Source: a virus (lineage: Duplodnaviria; Caudoviricetes). Taken from it: a stretch of DNA of 32,209 bases. The notes beneath the pieces are model-generated. The model had not been told where the DNA came from. It made no database searches and saw only the letters and a program-made list of their open reading frames with translations. The position numbers and the translations under genes are program-made. Each line of letters begins with the position of its first letter. Within the stretch, counting starts at the first letter, position 1. The stretch lies in the IMG/VR virus record IMGVR_UViG_3300017705_000119, positions 1 through 32,209 of that record. One strand, 5' to 3'. Below are positions 24,169-32,209 of this stretch, piece by piece.

Positions 24169-25784
24169 TAAAATTCAAAGTCGGCTTGAGTTGCTGGGGG
24201 AGCTGGTATGAATTGCATACGCTCCTTGTCAAAATTGAGTGTCTGCATCACGCCAGTATCCCCAGAGAATCTGTTCTTGAGGCATCGTGCTAATACATGG
24301 TTAGGATTCTCTTCATCCTGTTGGTCACGCTCGAGACCAATACAGATGTCAGCAAGCCCAGCAATTTGAGTGGAACCTCGAAGGTGACTAAGGGATGTAC
24401 GCCCACCTTCTTCCATAGGCTTACCCTCAACACGTTTAAGGTGACTCACTACGATGAGACCTATGTTTAGATTCTCTACCGCTTGACGTAGCTTAGTCAT
24501 TACAGCGTCAATACGCCGACGTTCATCGCCTTGGTCGGCAGCCCCAGATAACATCAGAGTGATGTGGTCTAAGAAGATATACTTGTAACCAGCATGAGCT
24601 AAGAACTTAATCTTACTCATCATGTTGTCTGGGTCTATTGAACCAAAGTGGTCGTAAAGAACAATGTTGTCCTCACCAAACACATCATCAAAAGCCTTGT
24701 CCAACTCATCTTGGTCGAGGTCATAGTTCAAGTGCAAAGCTTTGTGAGTATGTATACCTAAGAATTGTAAGGCCGACTGTCTTACATTCTCCTCGAGGGC
24801 AATGTAGGCGATGGGTGTTTGCTTACTTAAGTGATACGCAATCTCGCGGCACAATGTGCTCTTACCTATGCCGGTGCCAGCGGTAACTACAACCAGCTCT
24901 CCACGACGTAGGCCGTAAGTGGTCTTATTAAACCCTTCCCATGGGTACTCGTGACTCTCAGCTTCAGAGAAGTCAGTGACTGCTGCATAAATTTCTTCCT
25001 TGAAAACTAAGCCGTCAGGTCGGTGAGGTTTTGCTGACCACATAACACTGACAAGTTCAGACTCACGACCAGCGACAAGCATGTCATTTACATCCTTCAT
25101 GCCTTGAGGTAGTTGAGTGATGTGCGCTTTGCCTGGACTCAGTAACGCTGCACATTCAACGGCAGCATCACGCCCCGGCTTATCCTCATCGAACATAAAG
25201 ATAACTTTGTCGAATGACTCAACGAACTCAATGTTGTTACAGATAGCACGTGATGCTGACTGCGCACCGTTAGGAATTCCAACCACCGGCCACTTCAGAT
25301 TCTGCACTTGGGCCATTGAGCATGTATCAATTTCTCCCTCGCAGATAACAAGTTGTTTGCCACCTGACCAAAGGTGTTGACCAAACAGCGTCATCTTTTT
25401 GGCTTCCCCTATGATGGAGAAGTTCTTGTTAGAGTCGCGTAACTTCTGAGCGACTACACGCCCATCACCATCTCGGTAACTAGCTACTTGATACTTATCA
25501 GTAATACCATAACCATACTTGCGACATGTGTCCTCTCGAAGTTTTCTTTTGGGTATGTCTCCATACTCCACAGATAAAAAGTTTTGTGTGTTTGTGGGTG
25601 TCATTGGTTCTGGTGTTGTTTTGTTTTGTGTCTGTTTATGTATCGAACAACTGAAGCAGTATTCGTGGTCTGTGTAGACAGCCCTTGCATCACTGCTCCC
25701 ACAGTCTTCACAAGGGCCATGCTTTAAGAACCTACTATCTTCAGTTTCATTTCGACGCTCGGCTGTGTGTGTTTCTCCGCCCAT
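24168..25784 (-). CDS. Primase/helicase (gp4-like)
   Basis: Zn ribbon CEDC...CFSC, TOPRIM CEGEID and FDEDKPG, Walker A AGTGIGKST, LDHIT, VSHLKR, LRGS..I, KNRFSGDTG. Confidence 0.97.
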   Translation of the reverse strand: MGGETHTAERRNETEDSRFLKHGPCEDCGSSDARAVYTDHEYCFSCSIHKQTQNKTTPEPMTPTNTQNFLSVEYGDIPKRKLREDTCRKYGYGITDKYQVASYRDGDGRVVAQKLRDSNKNFSIIGEAKKMTLFGQHLWSGGKQLVICEGEIDTCSMAQVQNLKWPVVGIPNGAQSASRAICNNIEFVESFDKVIFMFDEDKPGRDAAVECAALLSPGKAHITQLPQGMKDVNDMLVAGRESELVSVMWSAKPHRPDGLVFKEEIYAAVTDFSEAESHEYPWEGFNKTTYGLRRGELVVVTAGTGIGKSTLCREIAYHLSKQTPIAYIALEENVRQSALQFLGIHTHKALHLNYDLDQDELDKAFDDVFGEDNIVLYDHFGSIDPDNMMSKIKFLAHAGYKYIFLDHITLMLSGAADQGDERRRIDAVMTKLRQAVENLNIGLIVVSHLKRVEGKPMEEGGRTSLSHLRGSTQIAGLADICIGLERDQQDEENPNHVLARCLKNRFSGDTGVMQTLNFDKERMQFIPAPPATQADFEF

Positions 25785-26134
25785 TCTTTCCTGCCTTTAA
25801 CGGCTATGATTTGATTGTCATCAACGATGATTAAACCTTGGATGCTATCTTGAATCCCTTTAAGTAAGTTATCTACGTCACACCGTGGGTAATCTAACTT
25901 CGTTGACTTTGGTTGTTGTAGTCGGAATGTAAATTCACACTCGACTGTTTGTGTTAGGGGTAAATCTTTTCGACTTACCCCAGATTTTATTATGGCCTCT
26001 TCGATAGCTGCTGGTGCTGCCTTGCGGAATGCTGTGTAACGCTTCCCGTAATAGGTGCCCCATTTACTTATCCTTGGCCGACTGGCTGGTACTGGTGATA
26101 TTGGTATACTGAACTTAAGTGACTTACGTCTCAC
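25724..26134 (-). CDS. rusA: RusA-family Holliday junction resolvase
   Basis: PVPASRPR start and DVDNLLKGIQD...IVDDNQI catalytic signature. Confidence 0.88.
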   Translation of the reverse strand: MRRKSLKFSIPISPVPASRPRISKWGTYYGKRYTAFRKAAPAAIEEAIIKSGVSRKDLPLTQTVECEFTFRLQQPKSTKLDYPRCDVDNLLKGIQDSIQGLIIVDDNQIIAVKGRKEWAEKHTQPSVEMKLKIVGS

Positions 26135-26763
26135 TAAAAGTCAGCGCCACTAAAGACGTCGGCTGCTGGTGCTTCCTCCACACCTGCGTATCCGTCTTCA
26201 GCGTCAAACAATTTTTCACCCATGTCACCGCCTGGTGTGTAGGTCTTAAGGTCGATGAGCTGCACAATCTTCATACGAAGTGTCATCCCAACTTTACCTG
26301 CGATGTTCCAGCAGTATGGCTCAAAGGCGATACGTAATACTGAACCACCACCCACCTTATCGACGGGCTTTTGGATTGGTTGGTTTTGTGCTGACTTCCA
26401 GACAAGGGAGTTTATCCATGTATCACCGGTCTTACTATTCTTACCATCTGCCTTAAGCTTAAACTTAAAAGCAGTCTCACCAGTAGGTTCCTGGGTGTCC
26501 TTATCCAATACCTCTGAGTAAGGTATAGCATCATGCTTCTTAAGCTTGCGGCCTTCCTGCTCGGAGAAACGCTTTAGTTCAGCGTTGTGAAAAGCTTCAA
26601 GACTTGCTTGGAACTTAGCACTGTCCTCGACAGATGGAATAAGTTGAACCTTGTACTCAGGAGCGTTGCCGTATTTAGCGGCGTACTCATGGTCCGGTTC
26701 GTTAAGGTAAGGGAAACGTGCAACGCCTCGAGGGCTTGCTTGAAGATTATGTTTTGCGCTCAT
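26134..26763 (-). CDS. Single-stranded DNA-binding protein (gp2.5-like)
   Basis: P.G.A.FPYL.EPD, FKFK.KA, GGGS, G..LR...VQ.IDL, acidic tail ending in Phe; AGGAG RBS. Confidence 0.92.
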   Translation of the reverse strand: MSAKHNLQASPRGVARFPYLNEPDHEYAAKYGNAPEYKVQLIPSVEDSAKFQASLEAFHNAELKRFSEQEGRKLKKHDAIPYSEVLDKDTQEPTGETAFKFKLKADGKNSKTGDTWINSLVWKSAQNQPIQKPVDKVGGGSVLRIAFEPYCWNIAGKVGMTLRMKIVQLIDLKTYTPGGDMGEKLFDAEDGYAGVEEAPAADVFSGADF

Positions 26764-26772
26764 GTGTAACTC

Positions 26773-29133
26773 CTAGTTAAAGAAATAGAGAGAATTAAAA
26801 ACCGAAGATGGGAGCATATTTCCAAGCTTCGGGGGTTGCGGAAGGTCAACTCCCGTCAACTGTTCACACAATTCGGCGCGGAACTCAGCGAGTACATCCC
26901 TATCAAAAAGAGACGAGGCTGATTCTCGGACGGCTTGAGCTAGTTGAGGTAAATCTGCGGCGTGACACCCGTAACTATCGTGCACCATTGAGAAGTGCGT
27001 TACGTCTGTTGCATTACAAATTGTCTCTACCATTAAAGCTGCGTCGAAAGAGTGTGTGAAGTTTGCAGTTATAGTTTGTCGTTGTCTACGACTGCTTATG
27101 ACCGGAGTAGGTTCCTGGACATAAGATACATGATAGCGTTGCCCAAGATTAGTTCTGACCTTTCTTGCGTTTTTCTTAAAATAAAGGTTAGTGACTTCAA
27201 GCCCCGTTGGAACGGTCCATGTGATGGGTTTGGCCTGTTGAGTAGCGAGTGTTGCGCATAGTTGGAGGTAGTCCTTACCCTCTAAGACTGCTGGTATGTG
27301 GTCAGGCAGCACCTTCCAAAGAAGTTGAGCAAGATAGTTGGCGCCAACAAAGTCGTTCTTCCAGTTAGGAACAAGGCCATCTTCACGCTGCTTCTGAAGC
27401 CAGTCAAAGATAGTTCGAGAGACACCTTGTAGCGTAGCCGAGTAAGGCACAATCATTACGGCACCCTTGACGGTGCTTCGGTCAATGCCTATGCGCCGCC
27501 ACTCTTGTGAGTAGAAACCATCATCTAGTTTACTGATAACATCATCAGCTACAGCTCGGTATAAGTCCTGTGGGGTCTCAGAGTACGTGCAGTTAGTTGC
27601 TACACCTGTGTATTCATCTCTCCGAATCAATGCCCAAATCTGACAGCCATTATTTGTACCATCAACATGGCATGGTAGGTAACTCGGAGTCTTTGGTTCG
27701 CAAAGGATAGAGTGGTATTCGATAAGCCAAGCTAAGAACTGGAAGGGTTCTTTAGCATCAACCCAAAAGCTCATGTAGTTTAATGGGTCATGCCCGGCGT
27801 TGAAGATAAGCTTTGTGTTTTCCTCAACCCATGCAACACGCTCATCAAGAGTTAAACTAGAGTGACCATAGTGGTTGGCACCCTTCACCTTGTAAGCCTT
27901 GAAGTGTTCTTCTTCAGTAAGTGGTTTACCTTTAGAGAACTGAAGGAGACCTCGAGATAAATCATCTCCTTGGTTGTTTAGTCCAACCGGTACGGAATAC
28001 ATCCGACCTCTGAAGTCTAACTGTTGAGGTAAGAAGAACTCTGATACTGAACTGAACTCCTCTGCTTGTTGAATGAGTCGAGCAACAGTTAGCTTCCTGG
28101 TCTTCATCTTATTGTTTGTTGCAATAACACGTGCCTTCTCCGCACCATATTGTTTACGTGCTTCCACGTTAGTGCTGATGTCTGTTGGTACTGTTGGGAA
28201 AGGGATAGGTTCACGCATAGGTAAACCAGTGACGGGGATGTTGTTCTTGTATAAGTGTTGAACCACTTCAAGCATACGTCCATTGACTGACCAGCCGGTG
28301 TCCTGCACTCGGTTGATAGCGTCATAAACTTTAGGCATTGCCTCCGGTGTAAACTTAGAGAGGTCACGTTGTGACTTAACAAGTGTAAGTGGTGTGTCAA
28401 TGTAGCCACCAACATCCGGTGCACCCCACGACAACGGTTGAACAACCATTGGTGTGTACAGTGGGCGCAACTCCTCACGAAAACCATGAGCCTTCTCTAG
28501 CCAATCAACCATCGCATCAGTAGGAACAACCACGCTGCGGTTACGGTTACGCCTTGCGTCATAGCTGGTCTGCACTTCGACAACACCAGTTGACTTAATG
28601 AACAACTCAAGGCCGACAACACCGGCCCTTATCTTTTCATCAATAGTCCATGCGTTACTTTCAATGTTGATTGCCTTACGTAGAGCACCAAGTAAGAACT
28701 CACCTTGGCGTCTGCTGCCTCGGTCAGTCCATGTTGACTTCTGAATGAGTCTAAATGTTTTAGGGTCTTGAATGCGGAAGGCTTCAAGTCGTGCCTCTTG
28801 TGACAGTGCGGTGCCTATTGAAAGATGCAGAGCAGTGATTGATTTAGCAGTGGTGATTGAGTTAAGTACCGCACGACTGATAAGTAGAGCAGTAGTCTGA
28901 GAAGGTAAGGCAGACATTAGTGGTAAAGCGGCGTGACCTCTGCCAGCTCTACGTCCGGCGTGTTCTTTCCATTCGTCTAACTCTTGTTCTACAAAGGGAG
29001 TCAACCGAGACAACGAAAGACGGCCAACAGCAGTCTCTGTTTCTTCTTCATTCTCCTTATAGTGGCTAACTGTGGTGCGGTACCTATGCTTTGCCTTATC
29101 CTTAGCAGCTTGTTCTAGTTCTATTTCGTCCAT
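26773..29133 (-). CDS. Single-subunit DNA-dependent RNA polymerase (gp1-like)
   Basis: PMVV.P..W, DFRGRMY, QGDDLSRGLLQF, PFQFLA, VDGTNNG.Q (motif A), R..VK..VM..PY (motif B), NFTHSFDA, VHDSYG (motif C); start set at MDEIELEQ (ATG 29133). Confidence 0.97.
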   Translation of the reverse strand: MDEIELEQAAKDKAKHRYRTTVSHYKENEEETETAVGRLSLSRLTPFVEQELDEWKEHAGRRAGRGHAALPLMSALPSQTTALLISRAVLNSITTAKSITALHLSIGTALSQEARLEAFRIQDPKTFRLIQKSTWTDRGSRRQGEFLLGALRKAINIESNAWTIDEKIRAGVVGLELFIKSTGVVEVQTSYDARRNRNRSVVVPTDAMVDWLEKAHGFREELRPLYTPMVVQPLSWGAPDVGGYIDTPLTLVKSQRDLSKFTPEAMPKVYDAINRVQDTGWSVNGRMLEVVQHLYKNNIPVTGLPMREPIPFPTVPTDISTNVEARKQYGAEKARVIATNNKMKTRKLTVARLIQQAEEFSSVSEFFLPQQLDFRGRMYSVPVGLNNQGDDLSRGLLQFSKGKPLTEEEHFKAYKVKGANHYGHSSLTLDERVAWVEENTKLIFNAGHDPLNYMSFWVDAKEPFQFLAWLIEYHSILCEPKTPSYLPCHVDGTNNGCQIWALIRRDEYTGVATNCTYSETPQDLYRAVADDVISKLDDGFYSQEWRRIGIDRSTVKGAVMIVPYSATLQGVSRTIFDWLQKQREDGLVPNWKNDFVGANYLAQLLWKVLPDHIPAVLEGKDYLQLCATLATQQAKPITWTVPTGLEVTNLYFKKNARKVRTNLGQRYHVSYVQEPTPVISSRRQRQTITANFTHSFDAALMVETICNATDVTHFSMVHDSYGCHAADLPQLAQAVRESASSLFDRDVLAEFRAELCEQLTGVDLPQPPKLGNMLPSSVFNSLYFFN

Positions 29134-29220
29134 GATGTTTAGCCACATACTCTGCCACAAAAGTGGCCACACTTGCCGCAAAATGGTAGCGGCTGTGGAT
29201 TAAGTGTCTGGTGTAGTTGT

Positions 29221-29383
29221 GAGAAAAAAGTGTGGCGTGTGGCTGATACAGGTACCTGAAACCTGCGCGTATACCAATTCCGCCACCTGGGCCCATAGAA
29301 ACCACCACTTTCTGAGTGTTCCATGGTGTGATGACCACTGGTATAGGCCACATCAGCCACACAATTACCACACTTTTTATCTC
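29221..29383. repeat. Bipartite inverted repeat flanking the tRNA fragment
   Basis: AAAAAGTGTGG (29225-29235) and GTGTGGCTGAT (29237-29247) are exact reverse complements of CCACACTTTTT (29368-29378) and ATCAGCCACAC (29352-29362). Confidence 0.9.
29248..29292 (-). other. 5' half of tRNA-Leu(CAG); att core, not a full tRNA
   Basis: GCCCAGG-TG-GCGGAATTGGTATACGC-G-CAGGT-TTCAGGT-ACCTG-T: acceptor 5' strand, D arm, anticodon arm with CAG; no variable arm, T arm or 3' acceptor strand follows. Confidence 0.88.
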
Positions 29384-29400
29384 TGAGTAACATTAGTTAT

Positions 29401-30444
29401 TTATGCCAGTGCATCTAGTTTTTGAATGGCCATAACTGAGTTCAGTGGGCTTAGGTGACTGTAACGTAGAGTTGTTTTTATATCTACGTGACCAGCCAAG
29501 TTAGCAACCACTGGTAGACTCTCACCATGCTGCACTAAGAGGCTACAGAACGTATGTCGGCACGTGTGCCAGATGAAGTCTTTATCTTCATGCTTACCTA
29601 GGATTTTCCTAAGACGCTCCCAGGCGGAACGGCAGGTGCTCTTAGAGAGACGAGTAAACGGCCCGTCTTGTTGGTACTGAACGTCCACCCCACGTGGATA
29701 GACTGCATTGAATGCTCGTCGTGTCAGTGGGATGGTACGGTCTGGGCTACTGGTATGTTTACCACCATGTATGAATACAGCATGGTCATCTCCCCATGGG
29801 CGTATGTCCTTAAACTCAATGGTCAATGCTTCCATCAACCGAAGGCCAGTGTCGCACATGAATTGAAAGAGCCGGGCATAGTCCCCGTCACCAAGTGTGT
29901 TAAAGGCAGTGACGATTTTCTCTTGCTCCGGCATACTGTAATAACTGATACGAGTTAAGCGTTCCGGCCTACGTTCTATCGCAGGACGCCGACGAACCCA
30001 ACCACGTTTATAAGCATGTCGAAATAAAACAGACAGGCAGCTTAACTTTCTGTTTATCGTGCCATCAGCTTTGCCCTTCTCTCGGAGATGTAAGACAAAG
30101 TTATCAATACTAACTTCATCTATTTCATCCATCTTCTTAAGTGGGCCAAAGTAATCCACCAGAGCGTGAGTGTTAAGTACAGCAGTACGTTCCCCACGTT
30201 GACCGGACCAACGGTGTGTTACCACATCGTCGATACAGTCTTGTAATGTTTTACCTTGGCTACGTGCCTTGTAGACTCGCATGTCTACGGTCTTACCATT
30301 CATAACATCAGCTTCAGTCTTGGCTGCCCAAGCTTCAGCATCATGCTCAGTCTTGAATGATTTTCTTAAGCGGCCGTTAGGTAAGCTCGAGTGTCTTACT
30401 TGAGCTTCCCAACTGTTGCCGCGTGGTGTTACTGATTTAGTCAA
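29401..30444 (-). CDS. int: Tyrosine recombinase / integrase
   Basis: N-terminal arm-binding-like segment (RGNSWEAQVR...KSFKT...AEAW), TINRKLS, TGLR..E, HTCRHTF, LAGH..I.TT.RY; AGGAGG RBS before TTG start. Confidence 0.95.
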   Translation of the reverse strand: MTKSVTPRGNSWEAQVRHSSLPNGRLRKSFKTEHDAEAWAAKTEADVMNGKTVDMRVYKARSQGKTLQDCIDDVVTHRWSGQRGERTAVLNTHALVDYFGPLKKMDEIDEVSIDNFVLHLREKGKADGTINRKLSCLSVLFRHAYKRGWVRRRPAIERRPERLTRISYYSMPEQEKIVTAFNTLGDGDYARLFQFMCDTGLRLMEALTIEFKDIRPWGDDHAVFIHGGKHTSSPDRTIPLTRRAFNAVYPRGVDVQYQQDGPFTRLSKSTCRSAWERLRKILGKHEDKDFIWHTCRHTFCSLLVQHGESLPVVANLAGHVDIKTTLRYSHLSPLNSVMAIQKLDALA

Positions 30445-30470
30445 CTTGTCCTCCTGTGTTGTGATGTGTG

Positions 30471-30499
30471 TTTTTAATGTTGTGGGGGTGGGATTTCAA
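30471..30499 (-). promoter_or_regulatory. Possible sigma70 promoter for int
   Basis: TTGAAA-17 nt-TAAAAA in the intergenic region; the -10 box is imperfect. Confidence 0.25.
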
Positions 30500-30508
30500 T
30501 ACCCTTAT

Positions 30509-30955
30509 TTATTTTAATGGTATTCCATCTAGAAGTACCTTCACACGTTGAACGTAGGGTTCAGTTGCCTTCTTCTGAGGGCCACGAGGGCCACCGTTGA
30601 AGGTAGCTGCAAGGTGCTCTACGTTATCCATTGGGTTCAACCACTGACCATAAGCCCAGCGTTGAAAGTAGGCATCAGCTATACGACGGGCATACTTAAC
30701 GTCTTTAACGTCTTGGAATACCCCAGCTATCCTATCATCATATTCTACAGCGTCATACCAGAAGGCGTATGTTATCTGCAGTGGGCCATACTCATTGAAT
30801 GAGCCACGTGCATTAGCTGGGTTACGGTGTCCTCCAGTCTCTACTTCCTGAATAACTTGCAGGAACGTGAGTTGGTCTTGAGTTAGGAATGAGTGAGCCT
30901 CCGGTTTAGAACATGATGAGGCTATGAGAATTAAAATTATGAAGATGTGTTTCAT
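30509..30955 (-). CDS. Lysozyme-like (i-type/destabilase or SLT-like) muralytic protein with lipoprotein-like signal
   Basis: MKHIFIILILIASS-C signal; VETGG (candidate catalytic Glu), GPLQI..FW.DA, A..FNGGPRG, Y..RV. Confidence 0.75.
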   Translation of the reverse strand: MKHIFIILILIASSCSKPEAHSFLTQDQLTFLQVIQEVETGGHRNPANARGSFNEYGPLQITYAFWYDAVEYDDRIAGVFQDVKDVKYARRIADAYFQRWAYGQWLNPMDNVEHLAATFNGGPRGPQKKATEPYVQRVKVLLDGIPLK

Positions 30956-31320
30956 TGTGTTTTGTTTTTAGTTAGGTAGTGAGTTGCACTGTTGTGTGAA
31001 TTTGCCTTAAGGGTGGCGCATCCAGTTGAACAAGTGCGGTAATGTGTTGGCCCATTGAAGGACCGGTGGCAGACGTCACATCTTTTTGGATAGATAGCGA
31101 TGTCTTCCACTTCTACGAGGGCACAGTTTGGGCAAGGTGAAGATGCAGCAAGCTGCTTACAATCAGAGCACTTAACAACAGGTACTTCTACCCAACTGCC
31201 ATCGAACTCATCATCCGGATTTTCAACAGGCACTAAGCATGTATTCTCTCCGGCCTTCCACATAGCACCAGCTAAGACGATGCTACGTGGTCCTCGCCCT
31301 ATTGGGCTATTCTTCTTCAT
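30952..31320 (-). CDS. Early Cys-rich putative zinc-finger protein
   Basis: CSDC, CPNC, CDVC, CSTGC pairs; ATGA coupling to the next gene. Confidence 0.65.
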   Translation of the reverse strand: MKKNSPIGRGPRSIVLAGAMWKAGENTCLVPVENPDDEFDGSWVEVPVVKCSDCKQLAASSPCPNCALVEVEDIAIYPKRCDVCHRSFNGPTHYRTCSTGCATLKANSHNSATHYLTKNKTQ

Positions 31321-31510
31321 CAGCCTCGACAGTTGTTAGAGCTGTTGTTAAGTCACTCAGTCTAATTTGCTGGCTCGGGTAGATGTCCTCGAGTGGGAGC
31401 TTGTTAGCTTTTAGTAGCTGATATTCAGCATCCTTTAAGGAGCAGATTGTAGCCTCGTCATGCCACGTGGTGCCCCTATCATCGACGGTTACGACTATGA
31501 GCTGTACCAT
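31307..31510 (-). CDS. Early hypothetical protein
   Basis: 67 aa, TAATG coupling with the upstream gene. Confidence 0.6.
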   Translation of the reverse strand: MVQLIVVTVDDRGTTWHDEATICSLKDAEYQLLKANKLPLEDIYPSQQIRLSDLTTALTTVEADEEE

Positions 31511-31740
31511 TAGTCCATGTATTGGTTAATCTTAACGGCAGCAAACAGTCCGGTTATAAAGATAGCCATCTGTTTCTTGGTTAAGCCGGGAGTTAAGTGC
31601 ACCTTACCACGACGAAGACGCACGAGGCCGTCTCCCCAGTCAGTGATAAAGCTAGAGTTAGAGATGTAGGCAAGTTGAGTAAGTGCCTCCTCGATGTTGG
31701 CCTTTGATGGCCTATCAATTAAGTGAAAGTGTGATGTCAT
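31510..31740 (-). CDS. Early hypothetical protein
   Basis: 76 aa, tightly packed in the early gene string, A-rich leader. Confidence 0.6.
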   Translation of the reverse strand: MTSHFHLIDRPSKANIEEALTQLAYISNSSFITDWGDGLVRLRRGKVHLTPGLTKKQMAIFITGLFAAVKINQYMD

Positions 31741-31741
31741 T

Positions 31742-31831
31742 TTATTTTATTATTAGGGAAGCTAAGGTAGCTATGATGATGAGCCCCAGTATTACCTGGA
31801 GCTCCTCCTTATCCGGTGTGTAGTCAGTCAC
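31742..31831 (-). CDS. 29-aa single-pass membrane peptide
   Basis: GTG start overlapping the upstream TAG; MTDYTPDKEELQVILGLIIIATLASLIIK; fills the gap exactly. Confidence 0.5.
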   Translation of the reverse strand: MTDYTPDKEELQVILGLIIIATLASLIIK

Positions 31832-32064
31832 TATGCTAGTGAGTCACCCCGGGGATTTTGCGTTGAGTAGTGCGCCTCGTCCGAGCCGTAGCGCTTGCCA
31901 CCGTCCGGCTTTAGTAGGCGTCTACGTGCTCGCTTGTAGAGCTCGAGGCAGCAGTGTGTCTCGAATGCGTTAGGGCCAAAGGTACGGTATGCTGATGCAA
32001 AGGCATCACCGAGTGCTAATGATGTCTCATGTAGCTGGATTTCTTTTATTGTGGTGTCTGTCAA
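31831..32064 (-). CDS. Early hypothetical protein
   Basis: 77 aa, TTG start a few bases after the upstream stop. Confidence 0.5.
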   Translation of the reverse strand: MTDTTIKEIQLHETSLALGDAFASAYRTFGPNAFETHCCLELYKRARRRLLKPDGGKRYGSDEAHYSTQNPRGDSLA

Positions 32065-32068
32065 AGTA

Positions 32069-32209
32069 TTATTTTGTGTTAGGTTTAGATGGTATCGCTA
32101 CCGTTATTAGTTGCTCTTGAATCGAGCCGCTGGTCTTAGAGATTTTAAGCCAGTGTGCTGGGCATAAGTGATATATGCCTAGTTTTCTATCTGCTACCGA
32201 GATGTAGTC
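32069..32209 (-). CDS. 3' end of an early hypothetical gene (truncated by window)
   Basis: Open frame from the window edge to TAA at 32071-32069 (…DYISVADRKLGIYHLCPAHWLK…PNTK). Confidence 0.45.
   Translation of the reverse strand, partial: DYISVADRKLGIYHLCPAHWLKISKTSGSIQEQLITVAIPSKPNTK

Follow-up and report, generated by a model that had tools for sequence, protein, structure and literature searches.

In pelagiphages, 12 of 12 attachment sites (attP) lie between the integrase gene (int) and the gene of the phage RNA polymerase (RNAP) (10.1101/410191), and a survey in which 625 of 1143 marine populations encode an integrase treats this location as a common rule (PMC12361551). Phages of the HTVC019P type target genes for tRNA-Leu (HTVC105P and HTVC109P), tRNA-Cys (HTVC021P and HTVC022P), and tRNA-Arg (HTVC120P); several pelagiphages are described as restoring the tRNA with a phage-derived 5' part that carries base changes, and an attL sequence from the environment reads as a host gene, then the tRNA-Leu 5' end, and then the RNAP N-terminus (10.1101/410191). 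Four 39-bp att motifs of T7-like cyanophages match the first half of tRNA-Leu, and the cyanophage integrase and attP were tested by deletion (PMC8776855). For phage LUZ100, a terminator (T4) and the control of RNAP are discussed, and the question of how the polymerase is insulated or switched on has already been posed (PMC10134795). In the tRNA-dependent lysogeny of mycobacteriophages, a core of about 10 bp is used and a separate phage tRNA compensates (PMC10865867).

The window analyzed here, a stretch of 32,209 nt, is the linear record of a virus, rated 83% complete by CheckV, with 46% GC, and is present in marine metagenome runs. PHROG matches give it the T7 gene order on one (minus) strand, with small ORFs of unknown function followed by tyrosine integrase, RNAP, SSB, endonuclease/resolvase, primase-helicase, DNA polymerase, exonuclease, portal, scaffold, capsid, and tail genes. 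The integrase (347 aa; 29401-30444, minus strand; phrog_1, E 4.5e-49) carries R202, H293, R296, H319, and Y328, which we take to be its catalytic residues (R-H-R-H-Y), and has a weak match to an N-terminal arm-binding domain at residues 27-50 (E 0.015, below the cut-off). The T7-type single-subunit RNAP (26773-29133, minus strand; phrog_414, E 4.2e-193) begins with an ATG at 29133, located 267 nt from the int stop, and its open frame reaches a TTG at 29181. We observed no clear Shine-Dalgarno sequence before this ATG, and a further in-frame ATG (29148) lies between it and the TTG. The cultured relatives, which include LUZ100 and phages of Ralstonia, Rhizobium, Roseobacter, and Pelagibacter, are distant, with about 31% identity for RNAP and at most 35-37% for the integrase. 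Within the window, which lacks the left end of the genome, neither PHROG nor Pfam found a MarR/HTH regulator in the five ORFs upstream of int (30509-32064), and no phage-encoded tRNA of the same isotype was found in the 83% that is present. Just upstream of int, an early ORF of 148 aa (30509-30955, minus strand) has an N-terminal hydrophobic stretch and a weak Pfam match to Destabilase, a lysozyme-like family (E 0.007, below the cut-off).

The half-tRNA and its counterparts in other genomes

A sequence-only reading of the window had described positions 29248-29292 as the 5' half of tRNA-Leu(CAG), on the same strand as int and RNAP, and as an att core. The first statement is confirmed by a match to cellular genes at 44 of 45 positions and by the strands of the ORFs, all minus, with the half between int and RNAP; the second is very likely, given the adjoining integrase, the 44/45 match, and the same layout in other T7-like elements. 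On the minus strand, the 45-mer starts at tRNA position 1 and comprises, in order, the acceptor 5' strand (7 nt), the D arm, the 5' strand of the anticodon stem (29261-29265), a 7-nt loop (29254-29260) with the CAG anticodon at 29256-29258, the 3' strand of the stem (29249-29253), and one further base; the T arm and the acceptor 3' strand are missing. ARAGORN called zero tRNAs in the whole window, and Rfam returned nothing for 28900-29600 at E up to 1, a result that is not evidence against a half-tRNA because a half is too small for Rfam's reach.

Cellular counterparts were sought in genome contigs with a 36-nt pattern that left one position free, which yielded an estimated 1500 or so stretches, and 120 loci were read. 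The matches listed, 123 in 120 genome loci, deviate from the 45-mer at a single position in 82 cases, at two positions in 34, and at three to five in 7; at fragment position 22 (29271), where the window reads T, every one of the 123 reads G. Complete tRNA-Leu(CAG) genes were called in 11 of 12 scanned loci, the twelfth being truncated by a contig end. Chance is no plausible source of a 44/45 match whose first base is tRNA position 1. An exact match was the part of the expectation that failed: the cellular tRNA-Leu(CAG) was recovered at 44 of 45 positions, the exact 45-mer gave 0 matches in genome contigs, and exact scans with the 45-mer and 44-mer in viral and metagenome contigs returned solely the phage itself and one sister contig.

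The titles of the 120 listed loci name Alphaproteobacteria in 104 cases, unspecified Proteobacteria in 10, and other labels, possibly mis-binned, in 6. In an even sample of Alphaproteobacteria, 75 of 401 genomes contain a match with two mismatches or fewer and none an exact one; the fragment therefore resolves the host to class only, and the earlier assertion that it identifies the host went too far. For this uncultured marine T7-like phage, it does hint at a host among the Alphaproteobacteria, and the true host may lie outside the genomes sampled. The 45-mer is identical in an independent population (X2; 14 differences in 901 nt, none of those listed lying in the core) and in the sister G002, and its single mismatch precedes the anticodon loop and falls in the segment that the phage would contribute to a restored gene. 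We also considered T at 29271 as a general mark of phage-borne halves and rejected it: halves with RNAP downstream mostly show the G pattern (10 from that pattern, with 120 loci read of about 2600, and 3 from the T pattern, with 120 read of about 250), and G001, a T7-like phage, keeps G.

Short repeats flank the core on both sides. The motif GCCACA has 7 copies in the 267-nt spacer versus 7 in the remaining 32 kb (Poisson P 4e-13, indicative only since the motif was picked after inspection). Three copies at 12-nt spacing (29142, 29154, and 29166; 29142-29171, plus strand) form putative arm-type sites on the RNAP side, two inverted copies (29231-29243, minus strand) adjoin the core, and two copies with an ACCACA variant (29347, 29356, and 29367; 29347-29372, plus strand) form putative arm-type sites on the int side. 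Arm-type sites of tyrosine integrases are tandem short repeats on both flanks of the core, and the GCCACA repeats likely play this part here. Four relatives that lack the spacer have no GCCACA cluster, with a maximum of 2 copies per 270 nt.

We hold it to be very probable that the 45-mer is an attP core that copies the 5' half of an alphaproteobacterial-type tRNA-Leu(CAG) and is used for insertion by the adjacent tyrosine integrase. The integrase would bind the arm-like repeats on both sides of the core and insert the phage into the host tRNA-Leu(CAG) gene, with a crossover predicted in the anticodon loop, a position that fits the 5-bp inverted repeat around 7 nt in the anticodon arm (29249-29265); a class of sites centered on the anticodon is listed in the Islander paper (PMC4383910). 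At attL, the host promoter and host 5' half would be followed by the phage spacer and the RNAP gene, and at attR, int would be followed by the phage 5' half and the host 3' half, a restored tRNA with one phage-derived substitution (29271). The split gene would be rebuilt since the window carries the whole 5' half, and integration may be transient, as in T7-like cyanophages. Among the pieces listed for eight runs, in which contigs drop rare forms, there were no attL or attR contigs for this phage.

The junction geometry put forward in the sequence-only reading (host promoter, 5' half, and RNAP on one side; int and restored tRNA on the other) follows from the sequence and is seen in the chromosomes G736, G656, and G970. 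Members of the T7-type RNAP family were sought in two alphaproteobacterial orders: 4 of 401 genomes of the one have matches, two of them weak and uninformative, as do 7 of 401 of the other, Rhizobiales. In G736 and G656, a host metallopeptidase-like gene, promoter-like hexamers, a tRNA-Leu(CAA) 5' half broken at the anticodon loop or stem, and an RNAP N-terminal remnant follow one another, and the matching host 3' half, left unrestored, comes about 4.6 kb further along in G736 and about 11 kb in G656, directly preceded by a different, element-borne tRNA-Leu(CAA). These are small elements that split the host tRNA-Leu(CAA) (L186, G736:C20, about 84.3-89.0 kb; L187, G656:C8, about 33.0-44.1 kb), and they look like tRNA-dependent lysogeny in alphaproteobacteria. 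In G970, about 200 nt separate a tRNA-Leu(TAA) 5' half from the full-length T7-type RNAP gene that follows it. The complete tRNA located 10 kb further along departs from the host's in its 5' half, the D-loop G-to-T change of the window being among the differences; with its 10 kb, this element (L191/L201, G970:C1, 32.7-42.8 kb) falls far below the size of a T7-like prophage. This geometry does not occur throughout: among the seven Rhizobiales genomes with RNAP matches, the 5'-half layout is present in one, the 750 nt read contain no tRNA motif in four, G954 shows a tRNA-Tyr 3' half on the opposite strand, and in G1041 an intact tRNA precedes an RNAP remnant. Outside this group, in ProddE, a 3' half follows int on the opposite strand.

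Among 240 viral loci sampled with the D-arm motif, 13, near-duplicates included, are 5' halves with a same-strand RNAP match 172-327 nt downstream, and 1 half has RNAP on the opposite side; G001 and L153 are further cases of the order int, half, RNAP. The half had been presented as unusual, a view that does not survive this recurrence and the published layout of pelagiphages and T7-like cyanophages. The accompanying premise, that most elements targeting tRNA genes carry the 3' portion, is right, since 5' fragments make up 159 of 3919 tRNA-targeting islands (PMC4383910, Table 1), and against this base rate the published layout makes the T7-like family a known exception. G001 (L134/L177, 873-917) and L398 are T7-like phages with the 5' half of an alphaproteobacterial-type tRNA-Leu(CAG) before RNAP; G001 departs from the window in having promoter-like hexamers immediately 5' of the half and, beyond it, a strong terminator. 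Many viral contigs among L203-L442 (L256, L267, L310, L325, L330, L350, L358, L359, L368, L372, L374, L395, L409, L421, L428, and L442) show a tRNA-Leu-like acceptor start and D arm that run into unrelated sequence; they lack an anticodon arm, have neither int nor RNAP in the vicinity, and were not called by ARAGORN, and they are possibly intron-bearing tRNAs or a tRNA-like repeat. In a blastn search of cultured phages with a whole tRNA-Leu as query, the best 60 of 292 rows were mainly whole tRNAs.

Sister phages without the spacer

Searches for loci with the integrase and RNAP as single proteins recovered only the one sister. Among public metagenome runs, the whole spacer is present in X1 (a possible source of the window) and in the independent X2, and it is likewise present in G002; X12 covers neither form. 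In X3, X4, X5, X9, and X10, positions 29137 and 29408 are joined with two other letters between them, and the 270 nt of 29138-29407, comprising the whole spacer and the int stop, are absent. The ends of this joint share no bases, and 215-255 nt lie on its shorter side. Spacer-less sisters occur in five of the eight public runs examined (four samples, four studies), with flanks about 98.5% identical to the window (24 differences in 1638 nt for X4). Their int is intact, four residues longer, and overlaps the RNAP start, and the cluster of integrase proteins holds three members of 347 aa, three of 351 aa that end in SSWTK (the spacer-less type: P0001, P0083, and P0084), and one of 300 aa. The 351-aa end is the product expected from read-through into the RNAP start; in this form, translation of RNAP could be coupled to int. 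A second variable slot lies upstream of int, where 30479-30528 is swapped for 681 other letters in X4, X5, and X10 and where G002 has an extra 93-aa ORF at 30529; this slot could hold an alternative att site or a regulator.

Related int loci are mostly of the compact kind. In a non-random sample of 25 (27 returned minus two unrelated, by patterns that favored one integrase motif), 20 have at most 67 nt from the int stop to the first RNAP match, 3 have about 520 nt and no tRNA motif, and 2 have a 5' half. The 520 nt or so of L155, L156, and L165, at the usual place of attP, look coding. A tree, midpoint-rooted and built without the 351-aa form, places the window and its sister in a clade of nine rows (100/100), the other seven of which form two lineages with int overlapping RNAP (L142-L147 and L154; 55-59% identity); six of these seven share the 13-nt overlap and the WTK end with the spacer-less sister. 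By parsimony, the tree topology favors gain of the cassette in the window's lineage, with repeated loss possible. The D-arm pattern detected no tRNA fragment elsewhere in the spacer-less relatives G003-G007, nor did a regex or relaxed ARAGORN, for tRNA targets only, in G003, G005, G006, and G007; three relaxed ARAGORN calls in spacer-less relatives looked like coding sequence.

Because sisters about 98% identical and the closest of the more distant relatives do without the spacer, the attachment site is likely a gain/loss cassette, and it is dispensable given that the sister phages thrive without it. These findings bear on the chief alternative, that attP is vestigial or used only transiently, with the phage lytic in practice, the spacer lost or drifting, and int kept for another job. 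We regard this as a possible account, tentatively entertained and less than even in probability; it is compatible with a true attP. It gains from the spacer-less sisters with intact integrases and from the compact majority of related int loci, from the one mismatch to all cellular genes found, from the lack of any canonical terminator or repressor gene among our findings, and from the report that T7-like cyanophages integrate without stable lysogens (PMC8776855). It is weakened by the unchanged 45-mer in X2 and G002, by the intact GCCACA array, and by the location of the mismatch, which lies where phage-derived halves are known to differ (pelagiphages and G970).

Two nearly identical forms of the phage, one carrying the whole attP and one lacking it, each with an intact int, constitute a natural deletion pair and thus concrete material for asking what the integrase does without attP. 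In most close relatives, the integrase is kept and the usual place is too short to accommodate a site, and the spacer-less phages that bear integrases caution that an int gene alone is not proof of tRNA integration. At the level of titles and listings, our literature search found no description of an attP presence/absence pair within a population, and we consider this pair to matter somewhat more than the half-tRNA itself.

Transcription across the predicted junctions

A consensus promoter scan of the minus strand from 25000 to 32209 found no promoter. Directly before the half, in 29293-29400, the best site (TGGTCA-17-CAGAAA) is outscored by 94% of background windows, a rough test in that the matrices were trained on mostly high-GC regions upstream of host tRNA-Leu genes. 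A candidate host-polymerase promoter, TTGAAA-17 nt-TAAAAA (30471-30499, minus strand), lies in the 64-nt gap before int and ranks 18 of 96,537 combinations of position and spacer on the coding strand, which makes it only suggestive, as 17 sites score higher; both of its boxes are kept in G002, and its -35 box falls within the segment that is swapped in X4, X5, and X10. Transcripts of the restored tRNA would come from read-through that starts at this candidate, since no promoter was found directly before the half and no terminator from int to the half. A genome-wide repeat search revealed no obvious family of phage-RNAP promoters, and no RNA datasets with the int-RNAP region were listed.

On the RNAP side, the minus strand has no canonical terminator within the spacer, including 29134-29247. 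Hairpin-plus-T terminators occur between half or int and RNAP in G001 (-16.4 kcal/mol), G736 (-16.8), RHEph01 (-15.8), and LUZ100 (-12.1); none was found there in L153 or in the scanned part of L180. In the window, just ahead of six consecutive T (29224-29229), a hairpin may form with bases 5-12 of the half as its 5' strand and one inverted GCCACA copy as its 3' strand (-22.1 kcal/mol, z -2.3); it would enclose a structured loop of 43 nt, and 4 of 200 shuffles do equally well. This pairing may be a by-product of the repeat. Read-through from attL into RNAP would be damped, if at all, by this non-canonical hairpin or by bound integrase. At the level of titles and listings, no description of attL terminators in T7-like prophages was found.

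Two further readings build on these signals. One takes attP as a swappable 270-nt lifestyle cassette, re-acquired by a clade in which int normally overlaps RNAP, and has integration of this terminator-less cassette bring the phage RNAP under the host tRNA promoter, with the growth state of the host triggering the lytic restart. Its presence and absence at about 98% identity are observed; the direction of change and the switch are proposals, the latter because the cassette is without the terminator that relatives carry, and as a whole this reading seems unlikely to us. The other makes integration itself the switch, with the host tRNA promoter driving the phage RNAP at attL and the lytic restart following host growth, and we judge it rather improbable. 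Only 115 nt of phage spacer would separate the host promoter from the RNAP start, with no canonical terminator, no good phage-side promoter there, and no regulator gene found upstream of int, and lytic infection starting from the integrated phage has been raised for cyanophages (PMC8776855); against this stand the strong terminators at this spot in relatives of the same layout (G001, G736, RHEph01, and LUZ100), which point to insulation of RNAP, and the pairing of the window's half just before six T. That the fragment descends from a phage tRNA gene by decay, or was left as a scar by imprecise excision, as the one mismatch and the whole tRNA-Leu genes near int in the T7-like relatives LUZ100, RHEph01, G736, and G656 might suggest, is very improbable in view of its end one base past the anticodon stem (other T7-like halves stop at or just after the anticodon loop), the repeat array on both flanks, and the absence of decay across three populations.

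Comparison with known systems

Taken as the attP core of an integrating phage, the half-tRNA is one more member of a published class, that of the pelagiphage and T7-like cyanophage layout. LUZ100, with int upstream of RNAP, is the best cultured match of the integrase (35%) and among the best for RNAP (31%). It is described as having MarR, a whole tRNA-Leu upstream of int, the T4 terminator, and a phage promoter before RNAP (PMC10134795), none of which was found in the window; MarR directly upstream of int and an intrinsic terminator before RNAP, two features of the MarR-controlled temperate T7-like phages of the LUZ100/Pasto type, are among these. With the mycobacteriophage case (PMC10865867), the window has in common that integration would split a host tRNA and that the phage must make good the loss, and it differs in having a complete 5' half of 45 nt rather than a short core of about 10 bp.

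The cores of the cyanophages P-SSP7 and S-TIP37 are 39-bp perfect matches to cyanobacterial genes (PMC8776855), whereas the core of the window has 45 nt, is of alphaproteobacterial type, and has one mismatch; integration has been tested in the cyanophages. A close likeness is to the HTVC019P-type pelagiphages (10.1101/410191), in which attP likewise lies between int and RNAP, the 5' part of the tRNA is supplied by the phage, attL consists of host gene, tRNA-Leu 5' end, and RNAP, and attR is on the int side, an arrangement that is predicted here. Unlike these pelagiphages, the window has the CAG isoacceptor, a host signal that is not specific to SAR11, proteins that are about 31-37% identical, and no MarR gene that we could find, and, whereas the pelagiphage attL has been seen in the environment, the junctions of the window are predicted from its sequence.
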